A DNA stretch of 40,638 nucleotides, taken from positions 1-40,638 of the forward strand of contig CAZQKP010000001.1 of NCBI GenBank assembly GCA_964594005.1, read 5' to 3'. Every line of letters starts with the position of its first letter. The first letter of the stretch is position 1. A program made the position numbers and the translations under genes. Positions 2,321 through 27,116 of the stretch are shown here, piece by piece. The notes under the pieces were generated by a model that ran no database searches, was not told where the DNA came from, and was given only the letters and a program-made list of their open reading frames with translations. This DNA is from an uncultured Candidatus Saccharibacteria bacterium (GTDB lineage Bacteria; Patescibacteriota; Minisyncoccia; Phycocordibacterales; DATDWN01).

Positions 2321-2321
2321 A

Positions 2322-3405: not shown

Positions 3406-3600
3406 TCTCGTTATCGCCTTTTCAAAGCTCGCATAAATTTCTACTGAAATTTTGCTCTGCTCGACAATCAAGCAATTAATCTCCTCGATACATAGCCTTC
3501 TCGCAAACTCGCTTCGCTCAAACAGTGCTTCAGGCTTATTTTATCTTCGTCGTTAATTGCTAATTGTCTGCGCAAGGCTCTGAAAAAGTGATAACTCGAT
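3405..3600. repeat. Long imperfect inverted repeat / extended hairpin of about 195 nt directly after rpsO
   Basis: Outer arms atctcgttatcgccttttcaaagc (3405-3428) vs gctctgaaaaagtgataactcgat (3577-3600). Middle arms gacaatcaagcaattaa (about 3463-3479) vs ttaattgctaattgtc (about 3553-3568). Inner gata..agcct vs aggct..tatc. Confidence 0.7.
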
Positions 3601-3661
3601 ATGTGATATACTAAGGGAGGAATATTTTTATAAGCGAATTTTATTATTATTTTTATAATAT

Positions 3662-11326: not shown

Positions 11327-12975
11327 CAGAAAGGGTTATAACCTACATAGAAAGTAGAGAATTTGGCGTAGTGAATTGGTTATTAGCTTTTACTTCCATA
11401 CTTTTTATAAGGTTTTTTTTAGAATCTATATCTAGCCCCACCAATTCAGGAGTAATTGCTTCAGATATATTCACCTTAGTTCATTATTTCTTGTTTTTTT
11501 TAACTCTGACTTTAGCTTCAGCAATAATTTTAAGCAGTTTAACAAAAAACTACTTCGCCAGTCTTAAGATACTTTTATTTGGACTACCACTATTATGGCT
11601 TGCACCTTTAATTGATATTTTTGTAAGCGGAGGAAAAGGATTCAAGATGTTATACGTTTTTGATACTGGGAAAAAACTTTTATCTGATTTTTTAACTTTT
11701 TTTGGATCAGATTTAACCCACGGAGTAACAATAGGCATAAGAATTGTTGTGGCATCAGCAATTTTATCTTTAGGCTATTATATTTGGCGCAAGACAAGAA
11801 AAATCTCTCGAGTCTTTTTGGCCATATTTTTTTTATACCTAGTTATTTTTATAATTGGCAGCTTGCCTGGAATTCTGTTCACCTTGATCCATTTAAACTC
11901 ACCTCTTAGTACAAACAACGAAGTAGTGAATTATTTTTCTAATTTAATTTTAAGATCAAGCATAACTCACAACACTCTGCACGACGGGATAAACTCTGTA
12001 CCTGTAACTAGATTTATAGAATTAGGTTTTGATAAAGTTCTCTCCCAAACACTTTTTATATTAAGTTTTATCTTGGGATTAATTTTTTTCTTTAAAAGCA
12101 CCAAAGAAAAGTTTTTGGCCATTATAAAAAATTCCAGAATCGAGAGGCTGACATTTTATAGCCTATCCCTGGCTTGTGGGATAGGTTTTGCTTACTTAAA
12201 TAAATTGGGCACACAATTTGTTTGGGTAGACTCTCTTGGTTTTATTTGTCTTTTCATCTCTTGGGCATGCCTTTGGTTACATGCAGTTTCGTTAAACGAT
12301 ATCGCCGATCTAAACATAGATAAAATTTCAAACCGGAACAGGCCACTTGTAAAAGACAAGCTATCAATTCAAGAAATGAAAGAAGTTTCTGGCCTCTGGC
12401 TTATGGCAGGACTATTGGGTGCGTGGTCCGCTGGATATTATCCTCTTTTTATGGCTTTAGTTTATGTAGCAGCTTCTTATATTTACTCTACCGAGCCGCT
12501 ACGACTGAGGCGGCTTCCTCTTGTACCATCTTTTTTAATAGGCGTTGCTTGCGCAGGAACAGTTCTAGCTGGTTTCTTCTTTACTTCCCAATACAAAGAT
12601 ATACAGATTTTCCCCATTTTTCTCTTGATTGGCATAATTCTCATGGTCACTCTCGCAATTAATTTTAAGGATGTGAAAGATATTGAGGGGGACAAGGCAA
12701 ATAACATAATGACTATACCCGTCTTATTTCCTAATTATGGAATTCGGATGGTGGCTTCACTTTTTGCATTGAGTATCTTACTTATTCCCATTTTTCTCTC
12801 CTCCTATTTTCTTTATTTGTTTTGCTTACCAGGAGCTGTAATCGGATACAGGTTAATTGTAAAAAAACCATACAACGAAAAGCATATATTTACCTTACGA
12901 TTTTTTCTTTTAGTCGCGATTGGCCTCACATATCTTTTGGTTTATTGGTACGGGAAATCAACCGGTATATTCTAG
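11323..12975 (+). CDS. Polytopic membrane protein: N-terminal half of unknown function fused to a C-terminal UbiA-family prenyltransferase
   Basis: C-terminal half carries LNDIADLNIDKISNRNRP (NDxxDxxxD) and FKDVKDIEGDKANNIMTIPV (second Asp-rich motif). The N-terminal ~270 aa are multi-TM with no recognisable motif. ATGA overlap with rsmA. Confidence 0.75.
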   Translation: MTERVITYIESREFGVVNWLLAFTSILFIRFFLESISSPTNSGVIASDIFTLVHYFLFFLTLTLASAIILSSLTKNYFASLKILLFGLPLLWLAPLIDIFVSGGKGFKMLYVFDTGKKLLSDFLTFFGSDLTHGVTIGIRIVVASAILSLGYYIWRKTRKISRVFLAIFFLYLVIFIIGSLPGILFTLIHLNSPLSTNNEVVNYFSNLILRSSITHNTLHDGINSVPVTRFIELGFDKVLSQTLFILSFILGLIFFFKSTKEKFLAIIKNSRIERLTFYSLSLACGIGFAYLNKLGTQFVWVDSLGFICLFISWACLWLHAVSLNDIADLNIDKISNRNRPLVKDKLSIQEMKEVSGLWLMAGLLGAWSAGYYPLFMALVYVAASYIYSTEPLRLRRLPLVPSFLIGVACAGTVLAGFFFTSQYKDIQIFPIFLLIGIILMVTLAINFKDVKDIEGDKANNIMTIPVLFPNYGIRMVASLFALSILLIPIFLSSYFLYLFCLPGAVIGYRLIVKKPYNEKHIFTLRFFLLVAIGLTYLLVYWYGKSTGIF

Positions 12976-12993
12976 TTGTGATAAAATATAAAA

Positions 12994-13857
12994 ATGCCTA
13001 GCAAGAAAATTCTATCCGTAATTGTTTTATCGGGCGCAACTATTTTAGCCACTTGGCTTATAGCGAGCGCCCCAAGCCAAACTTCAATTTCTTCGGCCCA
13101 AAAAGGTCAAGTCTATTCAATTAGTCGGGATGAAATTAAAACAAACGAGGATTGGAAAAAGATTTTAACCAATATAACGGAAGCTAGTTCAACGGTAGTT
13201 AACTTAACTCAGAACAAGGGCGATGATACTTTTGATGAAACCTCTCTCACCGGACAAATGTCTCGGGATTTTATGTCCGAATATTTACTTTTAAAAAAAG
13301 GAAACAAAACTCTCACTCAAGCGGATATAAATAAAATTATTAATGACGTATCTTCTGCTCCCCAATATAGCCAGACCCAAGCGGCAGTTTACATTGCATC
13401 AAATCTGCATGTTATTTATCAAAATGATAAGGCAACCTCGGAAAAATATAAGCAAAATATAAATTTAATTTTGAAAACAAGATCTCTCCAAATTAAAGAC
13501 AACCCGGTTTGGATACTGGACTATAGAGCTGGCCAACCCCAGAGCGTAAGCGCAAGTGTAAATCAGAGCGAGGATGCTGTCTTGGGGAGATTGGATGCAG
13601 TTACCTCAGTGGGCCAAAGTATTATATCTGATCTTCTAAACGTAAGTGTGCCAAGTGATGCAGTTTCAATTCATTTATCCCTTTTAAATGCTTTCAGCCA
13701 TCTTTTATCGGATGTACAATCTATGAGACTCATTACCAGCGACCCGGTAAAAGCTATGGTGGGCTTAAGTCAATATACTAACGATATTTCTAACTTCAAC
13801 GCTATTTTAGAGAGCTTAAATTCTTACTTTATAAAAACCACTGGTTCCTCATTATAA
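12994..13857 (+). CDS. Hypothetical membrane-anchored protein (first gene of the T4SS-like cluster)
   Basis: N-terminal anchor ILSVIVLSGATILATWLIA; the rest is hydrophilic and Ser/Asn/Gln-rich. No family recognised. Confidence 0.65.
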   Translation: MPSKKILSVIVLSGATILATWLIASAPSQTSISSAQKGQVYSISRDEIKTNEDWKKILTNITEASSTVVNLTQNKGDDTFDETSLTGQMSRDFMSEYLLLKKGNKTLTQADINKIINDVSSAPQYSQTQAAVYIASNLHVIYQNDKATSEKYKQNINLILKTRSLQIKDNPVWILDYRAGQPQSVSASVNQSEDAVLGRLDAVTSVGQSIISDLLNVSVPSDAVSIHLSLLNAFSHLLSDVQSMRLITSDPVKAMVGLSQYTNDISNFNAILESLNSYFIKTTGSSL

Positions 13858-13973
13858 TTTAAGCCAATTCTAGCCTTAGTTTTCAACAGAAAACCCTAGT
13901 TTTGGCCTTTTTTGTGTTATACAATTAACCTATCGACGGCCTTTTTTTAAAAAATAATAAGGCTAAAAAGTTT

Positions 13974-15347
13974 TTGGCGACGCTTTTAGTTGCTTTGCTT
14001 TTATTTACCTCTGCCCCCATACCTGTGCATGCTCAGTGGGTTGATATTGCACAGAGTATTAAGGAGTATGGCCTCGACCCCTTAGCCTGGTTTGCTGCAA
14101 ATTACGTAATAAAAAAAGTAGCTTCCCAAACCATAGCTTGGATAAACTCTGGTTTTAAAGGTAATCCAGGCTACTTAACGGATCCCAAACAATTTTTTCT
14201 AAATGTAGGCGACAGTGCTGCGGCAAATTTTTTAAGTGAAACAGCTCTAAATAAACTCTGCGCCCCCTTTGCTGTGAATATTAGACTGGCCTTAGTGCGA
14301 CACTACCTAAAAGCAGACCAAAATTACTCTTGCAGCTTGGGGGTTCTAAAAAATAATTACAGCCAATTTATAAATGATTTTAGCCAAGGCGGTTGGCAAG
14401 GCTGGTTTGAACTAACCCAGACAGACGCAAACAATCCCTACGGTGCTTATGTCGCCGCTCAAAATCAACTAGATTTAAAAGTAACCGAAGCTCAAGAAAC
14501 CAAAAAACAAGATATAAGCGCCGGCAGTGGATTCCTATCTTTTCAGCGCTGTGATCCAGATTATGTTGTTACTCAAGCCATGATTGACGAACTAGCTCAA
14601 ACTGAACCAGAGCTTGCCAGCCACTACCGGGTTGGAGATTGTTTTGAAGACCATTTTGAAAATGTTACACCTGGCAATGTTATCCAAAATCAGTTAAACA
14701 AGGTTTTGGGGAGTGGTGAAAGTAGAATTGAAGTTGCAGATGAGATAAGTGAAATAATAAGTGCTCTCTTAAATCAGCTTATTAATAAAGTCCTCTCTGG
14801 ATCTGGCACTGGAGGCTTAAAGGGAGCAAGTGAAGGAGGAAACAATTCTTTTTCTACCCAACTGGGCAACGAAAAAGAGCCCAACCCAAGTAGTAAAGGC
14901 TTTACTACCAACCCACCAAAATGTACTTGGGATCAAAATACTGGACAAATTTCATGTGAACAGCAAACCTGCACCGCTGATCCGGATACAGGGGAGACCA
15001 CTTGCACAGGCGGTGGCAACAGCTATTCCCAGGCTTCTTATGGAGGTAATGGTAATTGTAATGACGTGGGTGGAGATGGAGTTGGTTTCACAGAAGCAGA
15101 GTGGCAAGCCATAATCGTGGGGGCAGAATGTACACCAGATGTTACAAGTCAGGGCCTGCAGTGTGTCCTCGCTGCGGTTTCTCCTCACGGTGGCAGTGTA
15201 GAATTTGATAGCGCCGGAAACTTACGAGCCAGAGTTTATCTTACAGTCCCAAGTGCGGACCTAAGTTGTACTAAGGCGGTAGATATAAGCACAGCCACAG
15301 ATTGTGAAAACTGTGGAGGACAATGGACATGGATAAAAAGATTCTGA
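13974..15347 (+). CDS. Hypothetical secreted protein with a Cys-rich C-terminal domain (TTG start)
   Basis: Signal peptide LLVALLLFTSAPIPVHA/QW. The last ~140 aa (from 14922) contain 10 Cys (CTWDQ..C..C..C ... DCENC). Confidence 0.65.
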   Translation: MATLLVALLLFTSAPIPVHAQWVDIAQSIKEYGLDPLAWFAANYVIKKVASQTIAWINSGFKGNPGYLTDPKQFFLNVGDSAAANFLSETALNKLCAPFAVNIRLALVRHYLKADQNYSCSLGVLKNNYSQFINDFSQGGWQGWFELTQTDANNPYGAYVAAQNQLDLKVTEAQETKKQDISAGSGFLSFQRCDPDYVVTQAMIDELAQTEPELASHYRVGDCFEDHFENVTPGNVIQNQLNKVLGSGESRIEVADEISEIISALLNQLINKVLSGSGTGGLKGASEGGNNSFSTQLGNEKEPNPSSKGFTTNPPKCTWDQNTGQISCEQQTCTADPDTGETTCTGGGNSYSQASYGGNGNCNDVGGDGVGFTEAEWQAIIVGAECTPDVTSQGLQCVLAAVSPHGGSVEFDSAGNLRARVYLTVPSADLSCTKAVDISTATDCENCGGQWTWIKRF

Positions 15348-17614
15348 TGAAAAAGGTTTTTTATCTTATTTTAATAGTTTTAGTGCTCATACCACTGTTT
15401 GTACCCCTCCACATAGCTTCTGCTGCCTGCTCACCCTGGGATTTTGGAGGTTGTATTGATTGGGCATTGACCAATATCGCCAATCTAATATTGGGTCTTC
15501 TCTCTTATTTAATGGGTTGGGCAGCTTTGTGGCTCAACTTTGTCTTGGACTGGACAATTGTGAGGATGAAAACAAATCTCGCTACATTAACTGGCATAAA
15601 TACGGCCTGGAAAGTTGTGAGGGATCTGATGAATGTTTTTTTTATTTTCCTACTTATTTACGAGGGTATAAAACTAATTATTAACTTGAACAGTCGAGAT
15701 GGAATCAAATCATTTATTACTGGAATTGTTTTAGCCTCAATTCTTATTAATTTCAGCCTTTTTTTCACCAAAGTAATCATAGATACTTCTAATATCGTGA
15801 CTATTGGATTTTATCAATCAATTCTAGATACAAATCGAGGAAAACAGGCGAGTTGTGATGCTCAAGGAAATTGTGGCACGGGTTATGGTTTGGCTGATCC
15901 TATTATGGGTGCGCTACATTTAACCAGCGCTTACGACGCAAAGGTTACTAATAGTTTGGGCGAAACATCAAGCTTTTTAATATCAGCGCTAGGTAACGCC
16001 CTCATAATTCTAGTTGCAGCTTTTGTTTTTTTTGCGGTTTCAATTGTATTCGCCGTTAGATACATGGTTTTGATTATTCTTATGATGCTATCCCCAGTAG
16101 CCTATATGGGTTTAGGACTACCTTTTATGAAAAAATATGCCAGTCAATGGTGGACTGCTTTCAATAGCCAAATTCTTTTTGCGCCTATTTTTATGATTTT
16201 AACTTGGATAAATATTACTCTAATGTACAGTCCGGGTTTTTTGACTACAGGTAGCTTCGCGGATGCCTTTGATAATAAAAACCCTGCTGGCGGAGGCGGC
16301 TTTAATCTTATTCTGAATTTTGCCATAATTATCGGCTTACTTATTGCCAGTTTAATTATTTCCAAAAAAACTGCGAGTCAGGGCAACAGCCTAATCGGTT
16401 CTGCAGTTGGTAATGCGACAAGTTTTGCGGGAGGCGCTTTGGTGGGGAGTACAGCAAGATTTGGCCGCGCAACTGTTGGTCGGGTCGGACAAGCACTTTC
16501 AGAGAGGGAGGGGCTTAAAGATGCCTCAACTAAAAGCGGAGTTCGGGGATTTATCGCCAGAAGAACGTTATCAGCAAGTAATAAGGCCGCCACATCTAGT
16601 TTTGATGCACGGGCTACAGATAGTTTTGGCAAATTGGCAAGTGCCACCGGTACTAATTTTGGCAAAGTGGACGCATCTAAACAGAACTTTAGAAAAATAA
16701 GAGAGGAGCAACAAAAGAAAGCGGAAGAAGAGGCTAAGAAGTACAAACCTTCTGACACCGCATATGCCGAAGCCAAAGAGAAAGATGAATTGGCTAAGGA
16801 GGAACTTAAAGAAAGAAAAGAAGAAGCCCAGAAAGCGGCGGATAGTGCTCAAAAAGCCTATGAGGCGGAATTAAATGAGGGCAGAACCTTAGACCAAATT
16901 GAAAAAGACCTCAAGGCAGCATTAGAAAAAGAGGAGAGTCATAAAAAATTTGGTATACCAAGTGACCCAGCTCTTGCTGCAGAGATAAATCGACTAAGAG
17001 CGGAATCCGAGACAAAGAAAACAACCCTCGCTTCCTTAGACAGGAACAAGAAAGAAACAAAATCAGCCGCCGAAAAACTTGAAAAAGACGAAAAGGAATT
17101 TAAGGAACAAGAAGAGAGAAAACTAAATGAAAAATACGCGGAAAGAGTTAATGCAGAAGCGGGAAGAAAGGGCCATGAAAACAGAGTGGCTTTGGAAGCG
17201 CAAAGAAAACTTGATGCTGACGACAGAAAATCTCCAGCAGAAAGAATGACAGTTGTTGAGAGAAAGAAATTGGAAGATCAAGTTAAAACTGGGGAGCACG
17301 ATACTAGGACAAACAAGGCTTGGCGATATGTGGCAAATACGGTGGGCCTTGTTACCAATGTGGCTGGGGTAACTAACATGCCAATGACCAAAAAAGATAG
17401 AGAGGCTTTGGCAAGAAAAGTAAGGGGAGTTGCCAAACAAAAGAACTCAAAAGATAAATTAGCTGAAGCGGTGAAGGATTATCAAAAAGATATCGACAAA
17501 GAATCAGGTGAAGCAGCGGCTGAAACAGCTGCCCCTGCTGCAGCGCCTGCACCGACCCCGGCCCCAGCCCCAGAACCTCCACCGTCACCACCACCAGCAG
17601 GAGGAGCTTCATAA
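15347..17614 (+). CDS. TrbL/VirB6-like polytopic membrane protein with a long K/E-rich coiled-coil and Pro-rich tail
   Basis: Signal/TM then about 8 hydrophobic helices (15347 to about 16380), typical of TrbL/VirB6 in size and topology. C-terminus (about 16685-17500) is EEQQKKAEEEAKK...-type charged helix, ending PAAAPAPTPAPAPEPPPSPPPAGGAS. Start taken at the ATG in TGATG (15345-15349); the track's ATG at 15323 is in frame. Confidence 0.55.
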   Translation: MKKVFYLILIVLVLIPLFVPLHIASAACSPWDFGGCIDWALTNIANLILGLLSYLMGWAALWLNFVLDWTIVRMKTNLATLTGINTAWKVVRDLMNVFFIFLLIYEGIKLIINLNSRDGIKSFITGIVLASILINFSLFFTKVIIDTSNIVTIGFYQSILDTNRGKQASCDAQGNCGTGYGLADPIMGALHLTSAYDAKVTNSLGETSSFLISALGNALIILVAAFVFFAVSIVFAVRYMVLIILMMLSPVAYMGLGLPFMKKYASQWWTAFNSQILFAPIFMILTWINITLMYSPGFLTTGSFADAFDNKNPAGGGGFNLILNFAIIIGLLIASLIISKKTASQGNSLIGSAVGNATSFAGGALVGSTARFGRATVGRVGQALSEREGLKDASTKSGVRGFIARRTLSASNKAATSSFDARATDSFGKLASATGTNFGKVDASKQNFRKIREEQQKKAEEEAKKYKPSDTAYAEAKEKDELAKEELKERKEEAQKAADSAQKAYEAELNEGRTLDQIEKDLKAALEKEESHKKFGIPSDPALAAEINRLRAESETKKTTLASLDRNKKETKSAAEKLEKDEKEFKEQEERKLNEKYAERVNAEAGRKGHENRVALEAQRKLDADDRKSPAERMTVVERKKLEDQVKTGEHDTRTNKAWRYVANTVGLVTNVAGVTNMPMTKKDREALARKVRGVAKQKNSKDKLAEAVKDYQKDIDKESGEAAAETAAPAAAPAPTPAPAPEPPPSPPPAGGAS

Positions 17615-17615
17615 T

Positions 17616-18281
17616 ATGAATGACGAAAATAAAATAGAAATACCAGATTACGTAAAAAAGCTACCACCGGAAGCCCAGGATTTTATATTTAGTTCTATCT
17701 GGGAAGATCGAACTAAGGAAGTTGCCCGAAAGTATTCGCTTAACGAAAGCCAGACTGAAAGCTTAATAAACACAGTTGCATTAGTTCTTATCGGAGTTGA
17801 AAATCCGGATGATCTCTACACAGATCTGTTGGAGGATTTAAAAACTTCTAAACTTTTAACTGAACAAATTATTTCTGAATTAGAGAAGAGAGTCTTCGAA
17901 TTTGGCGTAAAAATTATTTTGGACAACAAAAAACCAGAAAGCGATATCAAAGAAAAACCTGACACAACAATACCAGAGCTGAAGCCAAATCTACTACCTG
18001 AAACAGAAAAAGTAGCCAGCTCTTTTAAACCAATAAGTATTCCCAAGGAAGAAGTTGCTTCGGGCATAACTTATCCAGCCAAAAATGAAGAGACAGTACA
18101 ACAACCCCTAAAAGTCCCAGAAGTTAATATTGCCTCAGAAAAAGTTGAGACAAAACCAATAACCCCACCAACTATAGTGGAGACTAAACTTAAGGCAGTT
18201 ACCCCAAGTATTTCAGAAACACCTAGCTCAGATGCCCCCAAAAAATACACAGTTGATCCCTATCGCGAGCCAATAAACTAA
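17616..18281 (+). CDS. Hypothetical protein (T4SS-like cluster)
   Basis: ATG at 17616 lies about 11 nt after AGGAGG and 1 nt after the previous stop. The track's start at 17508 only adds the alternative reading of the upstream Pro-rich tail. No TM; Pro/Lys/Glu-rich C-terminus. Confidence 0.6.
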   Translation: MNDENKIEIPDYVKKLPPEAQDFIFSSIWEDRTKEVARKYSLNESQTESLINTVALVLIGVENPDDLYTDLLEDLKTSKLLTEQIISELEKRVFEFGVKIILDNKKPESDIKEKPDTTIPELKPNLLPETEKVASSFKPISIPKEEVASGITYPAKNEETVQQPLKVPEVNIASEKVETKPITPPTIVETKLKAVTPSISETPSSDAPKKYTVDPYREPIN

Positions 18282-18282
18282 A

Positions 18283-18717
18283 ATGAGATACCAAGTCCCT
18301 CAATTTATTGAAATAGAAGATAAGGTTATCGGACCATTTACCGTTAAACAGTTCGTTTACTTAGTAGGAGGTGGGGGTATGGCTTTTATTTTTTACAATT
18401 ACCTCAACTTATTTATAGCGATCCCGTTAATGGTTGGAGCTGTCGGATTGGGTCTCTCTTTAGCTTTTTATAAAATAAATAATAAACCGTTTATTGATTT
18501 TCTAGAGTCTGCTTTTATGTATTACACTAGAGGCAATCTCTATATCTGGCGAAAGGAGGTGAAAAAAATTGAACCCGCAAAAGAAAAGGCTGCCCAAGCT
18601 AATACTGTAACCGTTCCAAGGCTTTCTCAAAGCAAACTAAAGGAATTGTCTTGGTCTTTGGACATAAATGAAAATCTAAATCCAGTTACGAGTGAAAGCG
18701 GCAAGAGAACAAGCTAG
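18283..18717 (+). CDS. PrgI-family (VirB3-like) T4SS membrane protein
   Basis: MRYQVPQFIEIEDKVIGPFTVKQFVYLVGGGGMAFIFY followed by a second TM helix, which is the PrgI-family pattern; it lies just upstream of VirB4. Confidence 0.65.
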   Translation: MRYQVPQFIEIEDKVIGPFTVKQFVYLVGGGGMAFIFYNYLNLFIAIPLMVGAVGLGLSLAFYKINNKPFIDFLESAFMYYTRGNLYIWRKEVKKIEPAKEKAAQANTVTVPRLSQSKLKELSWSLDINENLNPVTSESGKRTS

Positions 18718-18738
18718 TTTTCGTGATATAATTTAAAT

Positions 18739-19389
18739 ATGGCAATCAGTTCCAAGGCAACTCAAGAGTTCGTTCCCATAAAAGAAGTCAAGGATGGCAT
18801 CATGATTTTGAAAAATGACTCCATGCGCGGGGTAGTTTTGGCTTCTTCTATCAACTTTTCTTTAAAATCGGACGACGAAAGAAACGCGATCATTTTACAA
18901 TTCCAAGATTTTTTAAACTCGCTCGATTTTCCGGTAGAAATTTCAATCGAATCTAGGCGCCTAGACATTAGACCCTATATTGCTCTCTTGGAAGGACGCT
19001 ATAAAGAACAGACCAATGACTTAATGAAAATACAGACCAGGGAATATATCGATTTTATTAAAAAATTTACGGAAAGTACCAGCATTATGACTAAAAGCTT
19101 TTTTATCATAGTGTCATACGATCCGGCACTAGTTAAACTTCAAGGACCTAATGCGGGCTTGAGTAAATTAAATATTTTTAAAAAAAAATCTGCCAATAAA
19201 CAACAAGAAGAAAAACAGGCAAATTTTGAGGAGAATCGTACACAGCTAGAGCAAAGAGTCTCGGTAGTTGAGCAAGGTCTTTCCCGTTGTGGTATTCGAG
19301 TTATTCGTTTGGGTACGGAAGAAGTGATTGAGTTGTTTTATAAAATATTTAATCCAGGGGACACAGAAAAACCAATTAAATTAAACTAA
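18739..19389 (+). CDS. Hypothetical protein resembling a free-standing VirB4/TraC N-terminal domain
   Basis: TQEFVPIKEVKDGIMILKNDSMRGVVLASSINFSLKSDDERNAIILQFQDFLNSLDFPVEISI follows the pattern of the N-terminal region of Gram-positive VirB4 homologues. TAATG overlap with virB4. Confidence 0.55.
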   Translation: MAISSKATQEFVPIKEVKDGIMILKNDSMRGVVLASSINFSLKSDDERNAIILQFQDFLNSLDFPVEISIESRRLDIRPYIALLEGRYKEQTNDLMKIQTREYIDFIKKFTESTSIMTKSFFIIVSYDPALVKLQGPNAGLSKLNIFKKKSANKQQEEKQANFEENRTQLEQRVSVVEQGLSRCGIRVIRLGTEEVIELFYKIFNPGDTEKPIKLN

Positions 19390-21203
19390 TGGCCTTACTC
19401 GATTTTTTAAAACCAAAAAAAGAAGAACCGATCTCAACTATTTTGCCGCAGGAGATTTATGACTCTAGCAGCCTAGAGTTAAAAGATGTTATTGCCCCCA
19501 GTGCACTTAAGGTTACTCCCAAAGAAATAAATTTAGGCGAAAAAATTGTGCGAGGATTTTTTGTTATTTCTTACCCAAGATACCTCTCGGAAAACTGGTT
19601 TGCGCCGATAATTAATCTGGACAAAATTTTTGATGTTTCTATTTTTGTTACTCCCATAGACTCCGCGGGCGCTTTAAAAACTTTCCAGAAAAAGGTAGCG
19701 GAGGTCCAAAGCCAGATTAATACCCGCGAAGCTAAGGGGCTTGTTCGAAATCCAATGCTGGATACTGCCTATCAAGACTTGGAGAGTCTACGTGATCAAC
19801 TGCAACAAGCCCAAGAGAAGCTTTTTGATGTCGGTCTATATATAAGTATCTACGCCGATAGTATGGAGGAACTGGATAAAATAGAGTCAGAAATAAAATC
19901 AATCTTGGAGGCAAAATTGGTTTACCTTAAGCCCGCTCTCTTTCAGCAAGAGCAATCTTTCCGCACATCAATTCCCTTGGGCACAGACGAACTTAAAGTT
20001 TATAGTAAATTAAACTCCTCACCCCTGTCACTTCTTTTTCCTTTTATTTCCTTCGACCTGACCTCGGATAAAGGAATTCTCTACGGCATCAATCGCCACA
20101 ATTCTTCTCTAGTTTTATTTGATCGCTTTTCCTTGGAGAATTACAACTCCATTACTTTTGCCAAGTCCGGTGCGGGCAAATCATTTTGCACCAAGCTAGA
20201 GATACTTCGTACACTTATGTTTGATACAGACGTTATTGTAATTGACCCAGAAAGAGAGTACGAATATCTAGCTGAAGCAGTGGGCGGCAGGTACTTCAAC
20301 ATTTCCCTTAATTCTGAACACCATATAAATCCTTTTGAACTGCCACACCCATCGGAAGACGAATCATTTTCTTCAGTCTTACGTACTAATATCATTAACT
20401 TAGTTGGTCTCTTTAGAATAATGATGGGCGGCTTAACACCTGAGGAAGACGCTATTATTGATCGCGCCATTTCAGAAACATACGCCCTAAAAGATATAAC
20501 TCCGGATTCTAATTTTGAGAATTTAGAGCCGCCTCTTATGTCCGATTTTGAATTAGTTCTCTCGGGTATGGAGGGGGGAGACTCTCTAGCACAAAGACTC
20601 TCCAAATACACTCGCGGCACTTGGGCTGGTTTTATTAATAAGCCATCCAATGTAGATATAAATAAAAAATTTATTGTTTTCTCTTTGCGCGATATGGAGG
20701 ATGAACTGAAGCCGATTGCTATGTATATTGTAATGCACTTTATCTGGAGTGCCATTAGAAAGAACTTAAAGAAAAGATTACTTGTGGTTGACGAGGCATG
20801 GTGGATGATGAAATCAGATGACACCGCTTCTTTCCTGTTATCTCTTGCCAAAAGAGGCCGAAAATATTATTTAGGGCTTGCAACAATTACTCAGGACGTA
20901 GATGATTTCATGAAGTCAAATTACGGCACGCCAATTATTACGAACTCTTCAATTCAAATTCTATTAAAGCAGTCACCAACGGTGATAGATAAACTACAAA
21001 CTGTCTTCAACTTAACCGATGAAGAAAAATACCTTCTCCTCGAGTCTGACGTGGGGGAGGGAATATTTTTTGCGGGCTTAAAACATGTGGCTATAAAAAT
21101 AATCCCATCCTACACCGAAGAACAAATCATTACCTCTGATCCATCCCAAGTTCTAGCTATTAAAGCGGCAAAAAGACAACTGGAAGAATCCCAAAATGGA
21201 TAA
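19389..21203 (+). CDS. virB4: VirB4/TraC-type T4SS ATPase
   Basis: Walker A FAKSGAGKSF, Walker B LLVVDEAWWMM, an ATITQDVDDF-type sensor region and 604 aa. The N-terminal domain has the VRGFFVISYPRYLSENWF pattern. Confidence 0.85.
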   Translation: MALLDFLKPKKEEPISTILPQEIYDSSSLELKDVIAPSALKVTPKEINLGEKIVRGFFVISYPRYLSENWFAPIINLDKIFDVSIFVTPIDSAGALKTFQKKVAEVQSQINTREAKGLVRNPMLDTAYQDLESLRDQLQQAQEKLFDVGLYISIYADSMEELDKIESEIKSILEAKLVYLKPALFQQEQSFRTSIPLGTDELKVYSKLNSSPLSLLFPFISFDLTSDKGILYGINRHNSSLVLFDRFSLENYNSITFAKSGAGKSFCTKLEILRTLMFDTDVIVIDPEREYEYLAEAVGGRYFNISLNSEHHINPFELPHPSEDESFSSVLRTNIINLVGLFRIMMGGLTPEEDAIIDRAISETYALKDITPDSNFENLEPPLMSDFELVLSGMEGGDSLAQRLSKYTRGTWAGFINKPSNVDINKKFIVFSLRDMEDELKPIAMYIVMHFIWSAIRKNLKKRLLVVDEAWWMMKSDDTASFLLSLAKRGRKYYLGLATITQDVDDFMKSNYGTPIITNSSIQILLKQSPTVIDKLQTVFNLTDEEKYLLLESDVGEGIFFAGLKHVAIKIIPSYTEEQIITSDPSQVLAIKAAKRQLEESQNG

Positions 21204-22026
21204 TGGAGAAGAAAATGGATCCAAAATAAGCTTAATGGAGTGGGGGCTAGTAATTGGTGCCTTATTCGTTTGTGATCTTTTACAAGCTGGCCTCGATTTA
21301 TTGGTTATTGGTGAATTTACAAATCCTTTTTTTGATTTAATTATTGGAATGAGTTTCGGTTTGTATCTCCAGATGAGAGGAGAAAGTCTAACTAAACCTT
21401 CGAGAGCTTTTGGATTACTTGGAACTTTTCTTTTGGAAATGGTTCCTCTAATTGATGACTTGCCATTATGGAGTCTAGATGGACTTTTTAATATGCTTGT
21501 CTCTAGGCCAGATATTCTAAATAAGGTTAGCATGGGCATACCTGGATCTGGAGTGGTAAATAAATTAATTATTCCAGCCAAGACAGAACCAAACAAACCC
21601 GCTCAAGAAAAAGCGGAAAGGCTACGCGAATTGCCTGCGAAGAATACAAATCCAGGCTTTAATAGTAAGGAAAACGCAGTTGCCGCGAGAGAAAGATTAA
21701 ACAACGTTACAGATAAATATAACTTGGATACAGATAAAAACAAAGAGCCGATAAATGTAAACGAACAAAACTTAAAAGTGGCTAAGGATAAAAATCAAAC
21801 TGTAGATGAACAAAATTGGGAAGCAGCTAGAAGAAAGAACCGACAAAAAACAGTAGAGGAAGAAAATTTGGAGGCGGCTAGAAACAAAAACTCGGGAGAG
21901 GTCTATAATTTGAAGGGGGACGAGGCAATAAGACTAAGAAATGAGAGGCTGGAAGTAGCTAGAAGATTGGGCCTGCACTCAAGCGGAACGTCTCAAGAGA
22001 CTTCGGATCTAGAAAAAGCAGCCTAG
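21196..22026 (+). CDS. Hypothetical membrane protein with a repetitive charged tail
   Basis: 3-4 hydrophobic helices in the first ~100 aa. The tail has three ~14-aa repeats: NEQNLKVAKDKNQT / DEQNWEAARRKNRQKT / EEENLEAARNKNSG (about 21760-21895). 8-nt overlap with virB4. Confidence 0.6.
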   Translation: MDNGEENGSKISLMEWGLVIGALFVCDLLQAGLDLLVIGEFTNPFFDLIIGMSFGLYLQMRGESLTKPSRAFGLLGTFLLEMVPLIDDLPLWSLDGLFNMLVSRPDILNKVSMGIPGSGVVNKLIIPAKTEPNKPAQEKAERLRELPAKNTNPGFNSKENAVAARERLNNVTDKYNLDTDKNKEPINVNEQNLKVAKDKNQTVDEQNWEAARRKNRQKTVEEENLEAARNKNSGEVYNLKGDEAIRLRNERLEVARRLGLHSSGTSQETSDLEKAA

Positions 22027-22075
22027 TGTGCATAATCCACGTTTAGATACAATTTGACGTGTTACAATTATAGAG

Positions 22076-23062
22076 ATGAAGTATGTTTTTTCGACCATAC
22101 TGGCCTTATCTTTATTGCCAGCAATAGGTTTTGCGCAAATACCGGGAGTTGATAATTCAGATTTAAATGTAGAGCTAATTCCCGAAAGTCCCCACCCCAA
22201 CGAAGTGGTTAACGTTAGATTAACCGACTACAGTATTGATCTGGATTCTTCCCGAATAATCTGGAAAATAAATGGGGTTGTAAAACAATCTGGCACGGGG
22301 AATAAAACCTTCAGTTTCACTGTGGGTGATTTAAACAGTCATACTATTCTGACTATCGATGTCTCTGCCGCTTCCGGCCAAAATCTAGAGAAAATTGTTG
22401 AGGTAAGGCCTTCGAGTGTAGATATTTTATGGCAATCAGAAAGTTTTACTCCGCCATTTTATCGCGGCAAGGCATTGTTTAGTTATGAAAACAAAATTAC
22501 TTTTATCGCAATTCCCCATATAAGTAGTGGTAGTGGCGAGATTCCAACCAAGAATTTAATCTATAAATGGGAGATGAATAGCAATGTGATAGATGATTCC
22601 TCGGGCTACGGCAAAAATACTTTCACCACTATTGGTTCCCTCATCGCACGGCCACTTGAGGTAACTGTAGAAGTTTCGTCTTTAGATGGGATTTTCTCAG
22701 GCAGAGGACATATTATTACCACACCTGTTGATCCTAAACTCTTGCTCTATCAGGACGATCCGATTTATGGTTTACAATTTCAAAAGGCTCTAAACAATAA
22801 TTTAAATTTGGGGGGAGAAGAAATAGAAGTTATGGGTATACCATTTTATTTTGGGATAAAAGATCTTAGTTCTCCATATATTTCTTTTAAATGGTCGATA
22901 AACGGAGTCCCAACTGATAATGATGTGAGTGCCAATACTCAAGTGTTTAGAAAAAAAGAGGGAACTAGCGGCACCTCCAACATCTCTCTTAGAGTTGAGG
23001 ACTCTCAAAAGATCCTGCAAGCTGCTACCAGTAATTTTAATTTAAATTTTAACAATGAGTAG
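22076..23062 (+). CDS. Hypothetical secreted protein
   Basis: Signal peptide MKYVFSTILALSLLPAIGFA/Q. Beta-rich composition with internally similar segments (IIWKINGVVKQSGTG... / ISFKWSINGVPTDND...). Confidence 0.65.
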   Translation: MKYVFSTILALSLLPAIGFAQIPGVDNSDLNVELIPESPHPNEVVNVRLTDYSIDLDSSRIIWKINGVVKQSGTGNKTFSFTVGDLNSHTILTIDVSAASGQNLEKIVEVRPSSVDILWQSESFTPPFYRGKALFSYENKITFIAIPHISSGSGEIPTKNLIYKWEMNSNVIDDSSGYGKNTFTTIGSLIARPLEVTVEVSSLDGIFSGRGHIITTPVDPKLLLYQDDPIYGLQFQKALNNNLNLGGEEIEVMGIPFYFGIKDLSSPYISFKWSINGVPTDNDVSANTQVFRKKEGTSGTSNISLRVEDSQKILQAATSNFNLNFNNE

Positions 23063-23921
23063 AAGAATTTTAAAATTAGCCTTGGTTCTTTTAACCTTAT
23101 TTGGTCTTCAATTTTCTTTGGCCTTAGCTCAAAGCCAACAAATTCAATACCAGGTTTTAGCGCCTCTAGACAACGAACCAGCCACAATAACACTTCCTCA
23201 ATACATACCCTTCATAATTAACTTGTCTATTGGTATAGCCGCAGTCATGGCCTTCGTCATGATTACTTTTGGGGGAATTACATACGCTACAACTGACGCC
23301 TTACAAAAAAAACAAGATGGTAGAAAATTTATTGAAAATGCGATTATTGGTTTACTTCTGGTTATAAGCGCCTGGGTTATTCTTAATACAATTAATCCTC
23401 AAACACTTGATTTTAGTTTTTTAAGTAAATTACCCACCGCGCAAGTCACAGCGCCCACAAATGTGATTCCTGGCACTCCCATGACCCCCGAGCAACTTGC
23501 TGATGATGCTAATGTAAGATCCATACTGACCTCCCAATCTGGTGGCCAAGTAGTGGTGGCTCTAGCTCCCTGTGCGAGTGGCCAAACTAAGGGTTGCACA
23601 AATGTAAATGGTTTGCCGGTAAATGCTATCGACGGTCTCACTCGCTTGTCTAAAGACTGCAATTGTCAGATTATCGTGACCGGTGGAACAGAAGGAGGTC
23701 ATGTATCTCACGGTCCCGGCAAACCCGTTGTGGATTTGAGATCTCAAAATAGTGCTTTAACTGCCTTGTTGAGTAAATTTGATTCAAGAGCAGCTAACCC
23801 GTTTTCTAAACTGGCATTTGGAGTCACCCTTAAGGATCGCACCCATGCTAATTTCTCATATGAGACTGCTGAAGACCCTAACTCAAGCGGAGCGCATTGG
23901 CATGTAAGCTTTGGCCCATAA
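23055..23921 (+). CDS. T4SS pilin-like (VirB2/TrbC-type) module fused to a putative LAS/M15-like zinc peptidase domain
   Basis: Signal peptide, then IPFIINLSIGIAAVMAFVMITFGGITYATTDALQKKQDGRKFIENAIIGLLLVISAWVILNTINP, a two-helix pilin pattern. The C-terminus has GGHVSHGPGKPVVDL (S-x-H-x-x-G-x-x-x-D-like) and SGAHWHVSF (WH motif). Confidence 0.6.
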   Translation: MSRRILKLALVLLTLFGLQFSLALAQSQQIQYQVLAPLDNEPATITLPQYIPFIINLSIGIAAVMAFVMITFGGITYATTDALQKKQDGRKFIENAIIGLLLVISAWVILNTINPQTLDFSFLSKLPTAQVTAPTNVIPGTPMTPEQLADDANVRSILTSQSGGQVVVALAPCASGQTKGCTNVNGLPVNAIDGLTRLSKDCNCQIIVTGGTEGGHVSHGPGKPVVDLRSQNSALTALLSKFDSRAANPFSKLAFGVTLKDRTHANFSYETAEDPNSSGAHWHVSFGP

Positions 23922-23922
23922 T

Positions 23923-25146
23923 ATGTCTCGTAAATCTGTCTTTATTTTAATATCTGCAATTCTAGGTTTATTTTTAATATGCTTGATTGCTTATTATTTT
24001 ATTCTTTTAGGGAATGGTGGAAGCACAAGCAACACTCCAAGTGTTTTTAAAAATTTTTTTCCATTTGGAGGAAACGATAATGTTACAGCCAATCCGCCAG
24101 GAACTACTACTAACCAAAATCCTCCCATAAACCCTCCGGCTGAAAATTTTACTCAAAAGCTTAGAGAATTATCCGCCGAACCAGTCTCAGGCGCTGGGAG
24201 TTTGGATCTAAAAGCTGGCACAATTGTGCGTTACATTGAAAAAGCAACTGGTCATATTTATGAGGTGGAAATGTTTTCTCCAAACAAGACCAGGATATCC
24301 AACACAACCCTACCGCTGGTTTATGATGCACAATGGGGCAATAAAAATAATTCCTTAATTGCCAGGTATTTAAAAGACGACAATGAAACAGTAGACACCT
24401 ATGGTTTAACCCTTAAAAACTCGACCAGTACAGATAGTACGGTCTCGGGCACCCCTTTTCCAAAGAATATTTCAGATGTTTCCGTGTTTGATACAAGTGT
24501 GTTTTATCTGGTAGTAACACCGGACAACTCTTCTGGGTTTGTTTCCACCTTTGCGGGAGGACAAAAGAAACAGATTTGGAACTCCCCAATTACTGAACTC
24601 AACTCTCAATTTGTGAACTCTAAAACAGTAGCCCTTAACACCAAACCTTACCCTGGCATTCCGGGTTATCTCTATTTAGTCGATACAGGCACAGGTGGGG
24701 TTAAAAAAGTTTTGGGTGATGTTAATGGTCTTTCTACTTTAGTTAGCCCGGACGTAGCCCAAATAATTTATTTAAGCCAAGATAACATTGCCAAAATGTC
24801 TATTTGGAGTTCCAAAAGTAAAGCCTCAACCGATATAAGCCCCGCTACATTCCCAGAAAAATGTGTCTGGAGTAAAAAAAATACACAATTTGTTTATTGC
24901 GCCGTGCCTAAAAGGATTATTGGCCCAAATACATTAATCAATTGGTATCAGGGTTTGGAAGAAGAAAGTGATGATATTTGGAAATATGATTTAAAAACCA
25001 ATACCTCCGCCATTATAGAAAATCTCTCCACAGACGCTCGAGTAGACATTGATGTGATAAAACCATTTCTCTCTCAAAATGAACAATACCTAGTGTTTAT
25101 GAATAAAATTGATAATAGCTTGTGGAGTTTGGATTTGACCAAATAG
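23923..25146 (+). CDS. Hypothetical membrane-anchored protein, probably beta-propeller-like
   Basis: TM anchor VFILISAILGLFLICLIAYYFILL, a Pro/Asn/Thr linker, then about 330 aa of beta-rich sequence. ATG at 23923 lies 1 nt after the previous stop. Confidence 0.65.
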   Translation: MSRKSVFILISAILGLFLICLIAYYFILLGNGGSTSNTPSVFKNFFPFGGNDNVTANPPGTTTNQNPPINPPAENFTQKLRELSAEPVSGAGSLDLKAGTIVRYIEKATGHIYEVEMFSPNKTRISNTTLPLVYDAQWGNKNNSLIARYLKDDNETVDTYGLTLKNSTSTDSTVSGTPFPKNISDVSVFDTSVFYLVVTPDNSSGFVSTFAGGQKKQIWNSPITELNSQFVNSKTVALNTKPYPGIPGYLYLVDTGTGGVKKVLGDVNGLSTLVSPDVAQIIYLSQDNIAKMSIWSSKSKASTDISPATFPEKCVWSKKNTQFVYCAVPKRIIGPNTLINWYQGLEEESDDIWKYDLKTNTSAIIENLSTDARVDIDVIKPFLSQNEQYLVFMNKIDNSLWSLDLTK

Positions 25147-25863
25147 TTACTCGACTAAAACAGCTGTGTGGTATTTTTTTCGAATATAATATTCTTGGGC
25201 AATTGCAAATATGTTACTGGTGATTAGATAGAGGGCAACTGCAGAGGAAATAGTATAAGCAATTAACGCCATAAAAAAGGGGAAGAAGTATTTCATCTGC
25301 ATGGACATTGCTCGGGCAAAGTCACCCTGTTCACCAGAGTTTTGGGTGGGGTTGGCAAGGCTAATTTGGAAGTAGGTGGATATGCCAGCGATAGCAGCCA
25401 AAATAATACTCTTTTGAGATATATTTATTAAATTTAGAAAGGCCATGTTAATTGAAGCTGGGGGAGAAACAAAAGAGTAAAGTAAGCCCAAGTTAATTTG
25501 GGGCAAACCAGAGCGAATAAAAACCCGATACAAGCCAATTAAAATTGGCAGCTGAATAATTAGAATCAGAAAACCTGCAAGGGGATTTATGCCACGCTCC
25601 TTGTAATATTCCATCGTAGCTCTAGCTTGTTCCTCCTTATTGTCCTTATATTTCTCTTTAATTTTAGCTAAATCTTTTTCAGTCGTTTTCATTTCGATCT
25701 GGGCTTTGGAAGCCTTGATTGAAAGTGGTAAAAGAATCACCTTAATAATAATAGTAAAGATTATTATGATTATTCCGGCGTCAAAAAAAGGCAGGATTTT
25801 CATTAAAACAATAAAACCGTTGTACAGGGGTTTGGAGATAAGTGCACTAAATATAGCCGACAT
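25147..25863 (-). CDS. yidC: YidC/Oxa1-family membrane protein insertase (short form)
   Basis: LYNGFIVLMKILPFFDAGIIIIIFTIIIKVILLPLSIKASKAQ and ...NPLAGFLILIIQLPILIGLY are conserved YidC core motifs. Canonical position next to rnpA. Confidence 0.9.
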   Translation of the reverse strand: MSAIFSALISKPLYNGFIVLMKILPFFDAGIIIIIFTIIIKVILLPLSIKASKAQIEMKTTEKDLAKIKEKYKDNKEEQARATMEYYKERGINPLAGFLILIIQLPILIGLYRVFIRSGLPQINLGLLYSFVSPPASINMAFLNLINISQKSIILAAIAGISTYFQISLANPTQNSGEQGDFARAMSMQMKYFFPFFMALIAYTISSAVALYLITSNIFAIAQEYYIRKKYHTAVLVE

Positions 25864-25868: not shown

Positions 25869-26210
25869 TTATCTTATCACAGCTCCGGAATTAAGTAACT
25901 CCAGAATTTCCTCTTTGGATTTATTAAAAGTAAGTGGCTCACTATTTTTTTTAAATTGAAAAAATAAAAAGTATCCGGGCTTAACCTTATTCTCTAAACT
26001 AGTTATCACCTCGTAGCCCCATCTTCTTAATTTATTCCGTTTTACTGCGGAGTTTGAAATCTTTTTGGAAACAGAAAAAGAAAACTGGCTCGGCTTTTCC
26101 ACTTTTTGCCTGCTTAAATACAAAAGAAGGTGTTTGGAGTTAATTTTTTTATTATGAGAAAGAATATAAGGAAAAATTTCCCTGTCTATTCTTCTTTTTT
26201 TGGATAGCAT
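25869..26210 (-). CDS. rnpA: Ribonuclease P protein component
   Basis: SFSVSKKISNSAVKRNKLRRWGYEVI matches the RNase P protein RNR-type motif; it lies between rpmH and yidC. Confidence 0.88.
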   Translation of the reverse strand: MLSKKRRIDREIFPYILSHNKKINSKHLLLYLSRQKVEKPSQFSFSVSKKISNSAVKRNKLRRWGYEVITSLENKVKPGYFLFFQFKKNSEPLTFNKSKEEILELLNSGAVIR

Positions 26211-26218: not shown

Positions 26219-26362
26219 TTATCTACCTGAGACCGAGAGCTTTTTTCGGCCCTTTCTCCTGCGTCGCAATAGGGTATTTTGACCGTACTTGGATTTGGAT
26301 CTAACCAAAAAACCATGCGTTTTTGCTCTTTTTCTTTTCTTGGGATTATAAGTTTTTGACAT
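26219..26362 (-). CDS. rpmH: 50S ribosomal protein L34 (not in the ORF track; 47 aa)
   Basis: The reverse strand translates to [47 protein letters not shown], then TAA. Classic L34 in the canonical rpmH-rnpA-yidC order. Confidence 0.93.
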
Positions 26363-27047: not shown

Positions 27048-27116
27048 AAAAATGCAATCCAACTTAATAAACCCAATCTTTTTAAAGGAAAATAACGCAA
27101 ATACGATGTTTTAATT

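Follow-up and report, generated by a model that had tools for sequence, protein, structure and literature searches.

What is a type IV secretion system (T4SS) doing beside dnaA in a patescibacterial chromosome when none of the usual partners for conjugation accompanies it? We addressed this question for positions 12994-25146 of a 40,638-nt contig (CAZQKP010000001.1) from an uncultured Patescibacteria bacterium; the window hereafter means the entire contig. An earlier reading made from the sequence alone, here called the original prediction, had seen in the region a non-conjugative derivative of a T4SS, fixed in the chromosome of an episymbiont with a small genome. Synteny, lineage and the lack of mobility genes in the window support that description. 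With a probability of roughly 85%, we read the cluster as a vertically inherited, chromosomal, non-conjugative Patescibacteria T4SS in its Paceibacteria/Parcubacteria version, derived from monoderm MPF_FATA machinery and acting as a host-contact conduit. Such a system is already known from the literature of 2023-2025 and is not a new kind of system.

The VirB4 locus and its inheritance

The cluster consists of 11 consecutive + strand open reading frames (ORFs), numbered O1 to O11, with products of 287, 457, 755/763, 221, 144, 216, 604, 276, 328, 288 and 407 aa. Twelve genes had been claimed earlier; two relatives with called genes likewise have the same eleven-gene block between rsmA(-UbiA) and yidC. 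The tight junctions that had been quoted were all exact when we reread the sequence: TGATG joins O2 and O3 (15345-15349), TAATG joins O6 and O7 (19387-19391), 8-nt overlaps link O7 to O8 (ATGGATAA, 21196-21203) and O9 to O10 (ATGAGTAG, 23055-23062), and single nucleotides at 17615, 18282 and 23922 separate three further pairs (17614/17616, 18281/18283, 23921/23923). Only three real gaps occur, 116 nt ahead of O2 (13974), 21 nt ahead of O6 (18739) and 49 nt ahead of O9 (22076), and the stop codon of O11 abuts that of the convergent yidC (TAGTTAC, 25144-25150). A hydropathy scan found a hydrophobic N-terminal segment or anchor, or transmembrane (TM) helices, in 8 of the 11 products, as expected from the signal and anchor segments noted before; O4, O6 and O7 have no TM segment, and five products carry Sec-type N-termini. 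Five T4SS parts were identified: VirB4, a TrsD-like protein, PrgI/VirB3, a VirB6/TrbL-like protein and a VirB2-type pilin module.

The 604-aa product of O7 (19389-21203, + strand) is a VirB4 ATPase of the CD1110 / MPF_FATA type, with both of the Walker motifs quoted in the original prediction (A, FAKSGAGKSF; B, LLVVDEAWWMM). In profile hidden Markov model (HMM) searches, it scored 377 bits against NCBIfam NF045971 (VirB4-like conjugal transfer ATPase, CD1110 family; cut-off 325) and matched P-loop_TraG (E 1.7e-28) and also AAA_10 in Pfam. The ATPase call thus stands; what had been overlooked is that VirB4 is divided between two genes. The alignment of O7 to the CD1110 model begins only at about position 178, and O6 (18739-19389, +), coupled to virB4 through the TAATG junction, encodes a 216-aa TrsD-like protein that represents the VirB4 N-terminal domain as a separate product. 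In NCBIfam, O6 matched VirB4_plasma, the mycoplasma VirB4 model (residues 101-240, E 1.3e-11), CD1110 (residues 2-120) and TrsD/TraD, a family of staphylococcal plasmids (E 2.6e-5). Its orthologues are annotated as TraC-like (PF26593).

O7 has at least 8000 homologues, of which we inspected the best 120. These are 84-89% identical to O7 and each about 603 aa long; those that are named belong nearly all to Parcubacteria, Paceibacteria or Patescibacteria, with two labelled Nitrospira sp. Because all of the best 120 have this length and because a TraC-like gene of 212-215 aa precedes virB4 in relatives, we regard the TrsD/VirB4 split as ancestral and not as a frameshift artefact. The closest relatives are found among the Zambryski-, Taylor-, Nomura- and Wolfebacteria, at 77-89% VirB4 identity. 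Upstream of O6, the 144-aa product of O5 (18283-18717, +) is a small membrane protein with a TM hairpin, and its earlier assignment to the PrgI/VirB3 family was confirmed by a Pfam PrgI score of 35.8 bits (cut-off 27), accompanied by a match to TcpE (E 2e-4).

To place the cluster in its genomic setting, we compared gene order by tblastn with 80 other species-representative Parcubacteria/Paceibacteria genomes (L002-L081), recovered via VirB4. The order and strands of rsmA, the cluster and yidC-rnpA-rpmH-dnaA-dnaN-PBP1 (PBP, penicillin-binding protein) were colinear in 78 of the 80, so the gene order that the original prediction had put up for checking across Patescibacteria is indeed conserved in these genomes. 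Median identity to the window was 80% for VirB4, a figure somewhat inflated by the choice of loci through VirB4 similarity, although the comparison is still made within the same genome pairs. It was 64% for the TrsD-like protein (found in 79 of 80 loci), 57-64% for DnaA, 59% for PBP1, 53% for both DnaN and UvrD, 50% for PrgI (78 of 80 loci) and 24-39% for the remaining cluster proteins. VirB4 is thus more conserved than DnaA, DnaN, UvrD and PBP1 in the same pairs, an unusual constraint for a secretion ATPase. Colinearity in 78 of 80 species and a VirB4 more conserved than DnaA and DnaN together indicate, at the level of sequence comparison, that the cluster is vertically inherited and not an integrated conjugative element (ICE).

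The claimed absence of conjugation partners also held in domain and tRNA scans of the contig. The long ORFs of the 40.6-kb contig yielded no relaxase, VirD4/type IV coupling protein (T4CP) or integrase domain; the contig also has no tRNA, and Rfam gave no match at gathering thresholds over the whole window. The only TraG-type P-loop match in the window was VirB4 itself, with no second ATPase found, and in two relatives neither a relaxase nor a T4CP lies within ±10 kb of the cluster. Because no coupling protein or relaxase is encoded near it, we do not regard the cluster as a conjugation machine.

Partner proteins, transcription and flanks

O3 (15347-17614, +; alternative start at 15323, hence 755 or 763 aa) encodes a polytopic membrane protein with a signal or anchor helix and about six TM helices in residues 1-345, followed by a charged, coiled-coil-like cytoplasmic tail (about 400 aa) that ends in a Pro-rich stretch. 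The original prediction had called it TrbL/VirB6-like. The polytopic topology stood; the family assignment was sub-threshold on O3 itself, which had no Pfam match at E<=0.1, and had to be drawn from orthologues and a structure model. The family consensus matched only TrbL (E 0.0048; 17.1 bits, below the cut-off of 25.9) and TrbL_4 (E 0.0075) in Pfam. TrbL was matched by 5 of 46 orthologues at E<0.01, and precomputed TrbL_3 matches exist on many O3 homologues, with TrbL on a few. We modelled residues 1-408 with AlphaFold2 (predicted local distance difference test, pLDDT, 83; predicted TM-score, pTM, 0.75). In a Foldseek search of the PDB, the top four matches to this model were R388 TrwJ/VirB5-TrwI/VirB6 stalk chains (TrwI/VirB6), at a probability of 0.98-1.0, E 5e-3 to 3e-2 and a target-normalised TM-score of 0.36-0.42. 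Against PDB sequences, the only membrane protein matched by the O3 family profile was 'TrwI protein' (7o3v_F, E 0.13), which also confirmed that the chain in question is TrwI. Because the TrbL_3/TrbL matches of orthologues, those of the family consensus and the Foldseek matches converge, we accept O3 as a probable, highly divergent VirB6 with a long cytoplasmic tail.

The predicted VirB2/TrbC-like pilin module was found in O10 (23055-23921, +; 288 aa), which scored 35.5 bits against T4SS_pilin (Pfam cut-off 26.6) and matched the NCBIfam Mbov_0395 pilin-like model (E 9e-5); 43 of 45 O10 orthologues match T4SS_pilin as well. In an AlphaFold2 model (pLDDT 88.5), a signal helix is followed by a helical hairpin at about residues 47-113 (helices 47-79 and 83-113), a disordered linker and a C-terminal alpha/beta domain of about 150 aa (residues 145-286, pLDDT 96-98). 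In this C-domain, H219, D227, H281 and H283 are invariant in 91 homologues and in 39 C-domains, and four Cys are nearly invariant in the 91 homologues. The pattern H-x7-D ... H-x-H corresponds to the signature by which LAS/M15 zinc peptidoglycan peptidases bind their metal. In positional orthologues from other species, the pilin module is followed by a Peptidase_M15_3, M15_4, SLT, 3D or CHAP domain; one homologue (P0239) combines NlpC_P60, the pilin module and Amidase_5, and another (P0370) has an SLT domain followed by an O10-type C-domain.

Direct searches with the C-domain gave less. It had no Pfam match, and full-length O10 retrieved no LAS protein from the PDB by Foldseek, only spurious hairpin plus alpha/beta matches (PheRS, histidine kinases) at E >= 0.02. 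A heterogeneous profile of O10 orthologues matched (E 0.01) the N-domain of hedgehog, which has a LAS fold; a homogeneous profile of the C-domain only found nothing relevant among PDB sequences, and hhalign aligned the metal motif with that of an M15_3-bearing orthologue at only 2% probability. In a viral structure library, O10 weakly matched a phage 'Peptidase M15A' protein (E 0.03). A search of a library clustered at 50% identity yielded 739 representative relatives of the C-domain at E<=1e-3. Of the 150 that were listed, most are 270-320 aa long with the domain at the C-terminal end, and one has it behind an SLT domain. The putative LAS-like zinc peptidase domain occurs almost only in the pilin-module architecture. 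Taking these observations together, the balance tips slightly towards O10 being a wall-cutting zinc peptidase fused to a VirB2 module.

All 60 positional O10 orthologues carry a C-terminal extension (median about 190 aa), which is atypical of a polymerising VirB2. A further idea, which we consider rather unlikely, is that the Paceibacteria VirB2-like module is not a plain pilus subunit and serves as a T4SS-handled membrane carrier for interchangeable wall-cutting domains. If this were true, a species-specific lytic domain at the tip of the machine would breach the host wall, and both the missing VirB1 and host specificity would be accounted for. Fusions of the kind proposed for O10 are not mentioned in PMC12102498, and the pairing of a pilin module with interchangeable cell-wall-hydrolase domains in positional orthologues is possibly a detail beyond published accounts.

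The six remaining products are lineage-specific partners, of which five (O1, O2, O8, O9 and O11) are membrane-anchored or secreted. O1 (12994-13857, +) encodes a 287-aa bitopic protein with a TM segment at about residues 6-24 and an extracytoplasmic domain; it matched nothing in Pfam, NCBIfam or PDB-profile searches, nor did its consensus in Pfam, and its orthologues occur in 29 of 80 loci at 20-42% identity. The 457-aa product of O2 (13974-15347, +) is predicted from its signal and hydropathy to be secreted and contains 14 Cys. Its N-terminal domain of about 300 aa is conserved in alignments (WINxGF, LCSPF, QGGW, NNPYGAY) and its C-terminus is variable; orthologues are present in 57 of 80 loci (median identity 33%), and neither the protein nor its consensus has a Pfam match, nor is there a PDB-profile match. 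O4 (17616-18281, +) encodes a 221-aa acidic protein with no TM segment in the hydropathy scan, presumed cytoplasmic. Its N-terminal domain of about 100 aa is conserved and leads into a Pro-rich linker, and DPYREP at the C-terminus (D214-P219) is invariant; this short motif may serve for docking to the ATPase or to some other partner. The protein is detectable in only 16 of 80 loci and has no family match in Pfam, NCBIfam or by consensus.

O8 (21196-22026, +; 276 aa) encodes a small polytopic membrane protein according to the TM scan, with a conserved N-terminal region of about 110 aa. Its orthologues are 117-135 aa long, found by tblastn in 12 of 80 loci, and the protein here has an additional charged, repeat-like tail of about 150 aa (…EEQNWEAARRKN…EEENLEAARNKN…); Pfam, NCBIfam and consensus searches returned no family match. 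The 328-aa product of O9 (22076-23062, +) has a signal-like N-terminus, consistent with secretion, and three repeats resembling immunoglobulin (Ig) or PKD domains, each with 'W..NG'. The O9 consensus weakly matches BiPBP_C (E 1e-4), PKD_3 and Ig_3, its PDB profile matches the Ig-like domains of Hoc (E 0.006), and the gene is present in 77 of 80 loci. O11 (23923-25146, +; alternative TTG start at 23911) encodes 407 aa comprising an N-terminal TM anchor, a low-complexity linker and, from profile matches, an extracytoplasmic TolB-like beta-propeller: 12 TolB entries were hit in the PDB profile search (E 0.01-0.1), and the consensus weakly matches DPPIV_N and PD40. It is present in 62 of 80 loci at 25-61% identity. 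No VirB1-like gene was recognised in the cluster.

We then considered how the cluster may be transcribed. Extended -10-like motifs of the TGnTAnAAT/TACAAT type lie before the start codons at 12994, 18739 and 22076 (in regions 12973-12993, 18718-18738 and 22027-22075): TGATAAAAT ends 8 nt before the ATG of O1, TGATATAAT ends 8 nt before that of O6, and TACAAT (TTACAAT) ends 8 nt before that of O9. Overall, -10-like motifs placed 6-10 nt before a start codon mark the three gaps and the 5′ end of the cluster and recur in orthologous loci. There, a -10-like hexamer 4-10 nt upstream was found in 63% of loci for O9, 54% for O6, 47% for O5 and 33% for O1, compared to 9-19% at translationally coupled genes. 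Because these motifs stand directly upstream of starts and recur in orthologous loci, the description of the region as one coupled operon is doubtful. The transcription units are probably O1, O2-O5, O6-O8 and O9-O11, with coupled translation inside each, and the motif positions suggest leaderless or near-leaderless mRNAs. Several promoters directly 5′ of start codons are possibly another detail beyond published accounts.

Core genes flank the cluster on both sides, as predicted (rsmA, UbiA, yidC, rnpA, rpmH, dnaA and dnaN). The conserved left neighbour is rsmA/ksgA (10547-11326, +; Pfam RrnaAD, E 7e-60); a long UbiA-family gene (11323-12975; Pfam UbiA, E 1e-28) lies between it and the cluster only in this genome and its closest relatives. 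Pfam searches further identified on the left flank a comM-type Mg-chelatase ATPase (5736-7310), UvrD and an M23/LysM peptidase (LysM-LysM-Peptidase_M23; 7307-8341, -). The M23/LysM protein, 5 kb upstream of the cluster, recurs near it in several relatives (42-53% identity) and may be a wall hydrolase for the system or simply syntenic; M23/LysM domains occur on some VirB1-like proteins (PMC12102498). To the right, yidC (25147-25863, -) and rnpA (25869-26210, -) were identified by Pfam and rpmH (26219-26362, -) from its translation; dnaA (26481-27815, +) and dnaN (28033-29130, +) follow, again by Pfam, and beyond dnaN come a class A PBP (PBP1), a class I (Trp/Tyr-type) aminoacyl-tRNA synthetase, Obg and GatB. 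The oriC that had been placed here was not borne out and follows from dnaA/dnaN synteny only: DnaA boxes were not enriched (16 found, 11.2±3.1 expected) and the GC skew shows no switch at dnaA. The cluster is transcribed towards dnaA and converges on yidC, an orientation kept in 78 of 80 genomes; if oriC adjoins dnaA, the 12-kb cluster runs head-on to replication.

Further observations concern the contig itself. Within the AAA+ domain of dnaA, in-frame TAA codons occur at 27045-27047 and 27093-27095, 16 codons apart. The second aligns with TAT/TAC in 10 of 10 relatives and the first with TAT/TAC in 7 of 10 and with TTT or CTC in the other 3; the residues around the stops are unusually divergent (QEY->HK*, KEKY->KGK*), with A-rich runs. 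We rejected code 25 or another recoding of TAA, which is the normal stop throughout the cluster, while the dnaA stops replace Tyr codons in a divergent stretch; an error of sequencing or assembly, or else a variant within the population, is the probable cause, and the two stops too are possibly a detail beyond published accounts. Positions 1-2300 have a GC content of 0.45-0.56 compared to about 0.37 elsewhere, and none of their ORFs, whatever the frame, exceeds about 150 aa. The segment contains no tRNA, Rfam gave only chance-level matches over 1-3700, and it may represent a piece of foreign DNA, a chimeric assembly or some non-coding element. At the other end, a frame of at least 1212 aa (37001-40638) runs off the contig. 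Its product weakly resembles HTH_17 near the N-terminus, has a TM segment and contains long repeats rich in Ser, Thr and Gly; judging from this composition it looks like a giant surface or adhesin-like protein, and it is neither a relaxase nor a T4CP. The frame is preceded by a 127-aa ORF with an HTH_38 domain (IS30-type helix-turn-helix, HTH) at 36304-36687.

Possible function and rival explanations

We propose the following working model. VirB4/TrsD would dock through PrgI on a VirB6 platform in a single membrane and would power the extraction of the pilin-module protein and its assembly into a short pilus or stalk. The C-domain of O10, probably a zinc peptidoglycan peptidase, would open the cell wall, either the cell's own or that of the host, and so replace the missing VirB1. 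O2, O9 and O11 would form the extracellular, host-contacting part, and the machine as a whole would be a contact conduit serving a host-dependent lifestyle. As to the direction of transport, we lean slightly, and only tentatively, towards import of host macromolecules; effector export is a less favoured possibility, and pure adhesion is unlikely.

Conjugation deserves consideration because the VirB4 belongs to the CD1110 conjugal-transfer family of NCBIfam, because MPF_FATA ancestry is conjugative (PMC12102498), and because of the IS30-type HTH_38 ORF on the right of the window. The cluster would then be an ICE or its remnant that still mobilises DNA, and its relaxase, oriT and VirD4 would lie just beyond the window or have been lost recently. 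We find this very improbable: in 78 of 80 species the cluster is flanked by identical core genes, at an unchanged position and orientation, its VirB4 outstrips DnaA in conservation, and the 13 kb on its left and 15 kb on its right contain no relaxase, T4CP, integrase, tRNA or att repeat. Relaxases are moreover rare in the group, with only 109 in 3,035 Patescibacteria genomes, 15 of them near virB4 (PMC12102498). We rejected the ICE on the fixed synteny. A decaying, non-functional relic is harder still to credit. The two in-frame TAA codons in dnaA might speak for a degrading region, or for poor assembly, but all 11 ORFs are intact with orthologue-like lengths, VirB4 is 77-89% identical to its relatives, and catalytic motifs and invariant residues are kept.

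More serious are the proposals that give the machine a specific cargo. In a dedicated DNA-uptake (competence) system like ComB of H. pylori or archaeal Ced, the cluster would work with comM, 6 kb upstream. T4CP-less, VirB4-only systems do include these two importers (PMC11665869), a weak CedB match was seen (33 bits), and Patescibacteria lack nucleotide synthesis. However, the CedB score is far under its cut-off of 700, comM is not contiguous with the cluster, and no DNA-binding or nuclease component was recognised among the cluster's products. In S. epibionticum, deletion of comEC abolishes competence with viability unaffected, whereas the T4SS is essential, so the two are separable (PMC12857230). 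The functional link to comM suggested in the original prediction has nothing beyond proximity in its favour, and we consider an uptake machine of this kind improbable. Export of protein effectors or toxins at the host, as by Bordetella Ptl or Brucella VirB without a T4CP, would have O2, O9, O11 or the hydrolase domain of O10 as its cargo. It is favoured by Wang et al., whose preference for protein export or some alternative function stems from the lack of a recognisable coupling protein or relaxase (PMC10633639), and is compatible with the five Sec-type N-termini and with hydrolase domains that differ between species on the pilin module, as effector domains do. No effector has been identified, though, and O2, O9 and O11 are conserved, syntenic and structural-looking, unlike variable cargo; we regard export as doubtful without thinking it far-fetched.

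Several points weigh against reading the cluster as a vertically inherited, non-conjugative host-contact T4SS, or against parts of that reading. Essentiality has been shown in Saccharibacteria, another class (PMC10633639), and since VirD4-like proteins lie far from virB4 in most Patescibacteria (PMC12102498), it matters that the absence of relaxase and T4CP covers the 40.6-kb contig only. No VirB8-like protein was recognised among the cluster products, and the VirB6 assignment draws on sub-threshold HMM scores and modest TM-scores (0.36-0.42). For O10, the peptidase assignment of the C-domain was not significant in any single test, and a 17-kDa domain on each subunit may be incompatible with a polymerised VirB2 pilus, in which case O10 is perhaps a membrane-anchored enzyme. 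Neither the sigma-70 promoter scan (33 hits vs 33.6 in shuffles) nor the intrinsic terminator scan (15 vs 13.4) showed enrichment, so the proposed transcription units follow from the motif census across orthologous loci.

Comparison with known T4SSs

The Patescibacteria T4SS is nearly universal in a phylum that holds a large share of bacterial diversity, and it has proved essential in the only species tested. Quiñonero-Coronel et al. 2025 found 2,425 VirB4s in 2,407 assemblies among the 3,035 Patescibacteria genomes searched, forming a monophyletic clade nested in MPF_FATA; TrsD is the commonest companion of virB4, PrgI/VirB3, a divergent VirB6 and VirB2-like pilins are encoded near it, T4CP homologues are rarely linked to it, and the cluster is located next to dnaA, dnaN, rnpA, ksgA and rpmH in Paceibacteria and Microgenomatia (PMC12102498). 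Transposon sequencing (Tn-seq) by Wang et al. 2023 identified the T4SS and its pilins as essential to the epibiotic growth of S. epibionticum (PMC10633639), whose system has no recognisable coupling protein or relaxase (PMC10633639, PMC12857230). Reviews call the role of the T4SS 'completely unknown' and mention effector delivery and nucleotide acquisition as ideas (PMC12857230, PMC11665869). In Paceibacterales-methanogen cultures, the genes for T4SS-pilin proteins show some of the highest expression of all genes of unknown function (PMC10936435), and a 2026 preprint describes tubular T4SS-like structures at the parasite-host interface together with uptake of host RNA.

The cluster described here has the features of this clade: a CD1110 VirB4 with adjacent TrsD, PrgI, a probable VirB6 and a pilin module, no linked relaxase or T4CP, and a location beside dnaA, dnaN, rnpA, rpmH and ksgA. 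As a Paceibacteria example the window is clean and complete, none of the eleven genes being disrupted, and the details of note are a VirB4 constraint above that of DnaA/DnaN, a swappable wall-hydrolase-like domain on the pilin module and several probable promoters. Compared with the published systems of the Patescibacteria clade, including that of S. epibionticum (SEML1_0006-0019), it shares the MPF_FATA-derived VirB4, adjacent TrsD, PrgI/VirB3, divergent VirB6 and VirB2-like pilin, and is likewise chromosomal, in a cluster without relaxase or T4CP. However, there is a single pilin-module gene here, with an enzyme-like C-domain, whereas Saccharimonadia and Microgenomatia have an array of 2-11 short pilins. 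The lysozyme or peptidase gene directly downstream of virB4 in S. epibionticum has no counterpart at that place in this cluster, and the six lineage-specific partners are unnamed in PMC12102498 and PMC10633639.

Among more distant systems, the R388 TrwI/VirB6 stalk (PDB 7o3v, 8rt9, 8rtd) is the best structural match to the membrane domain of O3, at 13-20% identity, TM-scores of 0.24-0.42 and E of only 5e-3 to 3e-2. O3 differs from TrwI in its additional cytoplasmic tail of about 400 aa, in which it resembles the 'extended VirB6' type (PMC12857230). ComB of H. pylori (DNA uptake), archaeal Ced (DNA import) and Bordetella Ptl (toxin export) likewise combine a VirB4-type ATPase with the lack of a coupling protein and are non-conjugative. 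ComB and Ptl, however, are diderm MPF_T systems with VirB7, VirB9 and VirB10 and have no specific sequence relationship to the cluster, and the Ced likeness is confined to the 33-bit CedB match far below its cut-off.

The monoderm MPF_FATA systems, represented by pGO1/pSK41 (TrsC-TrsD-TrsE), the CTn2/CD1110 type and pCF10 (PrgH-PrgI-PrgJ-PrgK-PrgL), are closer. As in these, VirB4 passes the CD1110 cut-off, VirB3 is of the PrgI family, a PrgH/VirB6-type polytopic protein is present, and there is no outer-membrane core, consistent with a single membrane; a TrsD-like gene directly upstream of virB4 is shared with the pGO1 subclass. The relaxase, T4CP, integrase/tRNA boundaries and variable insertion site of a conjugative MPF_FATA system or ICE were not found in the window, and the cluster itself differs in having no relaxase, oriT, T4CP (PcfC/TcpA) or adhesin and no recognisable VirB8-like (PrgL/TraM) or VirB1-like (PrgK/TrsG) gene. 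Conversely, it encodes a VirB2-type pilin, which is absent from Gram-positive systems, and it is fixed in the chromosome, whereas MPF_FATA systems reside on a plasmid or ICE.

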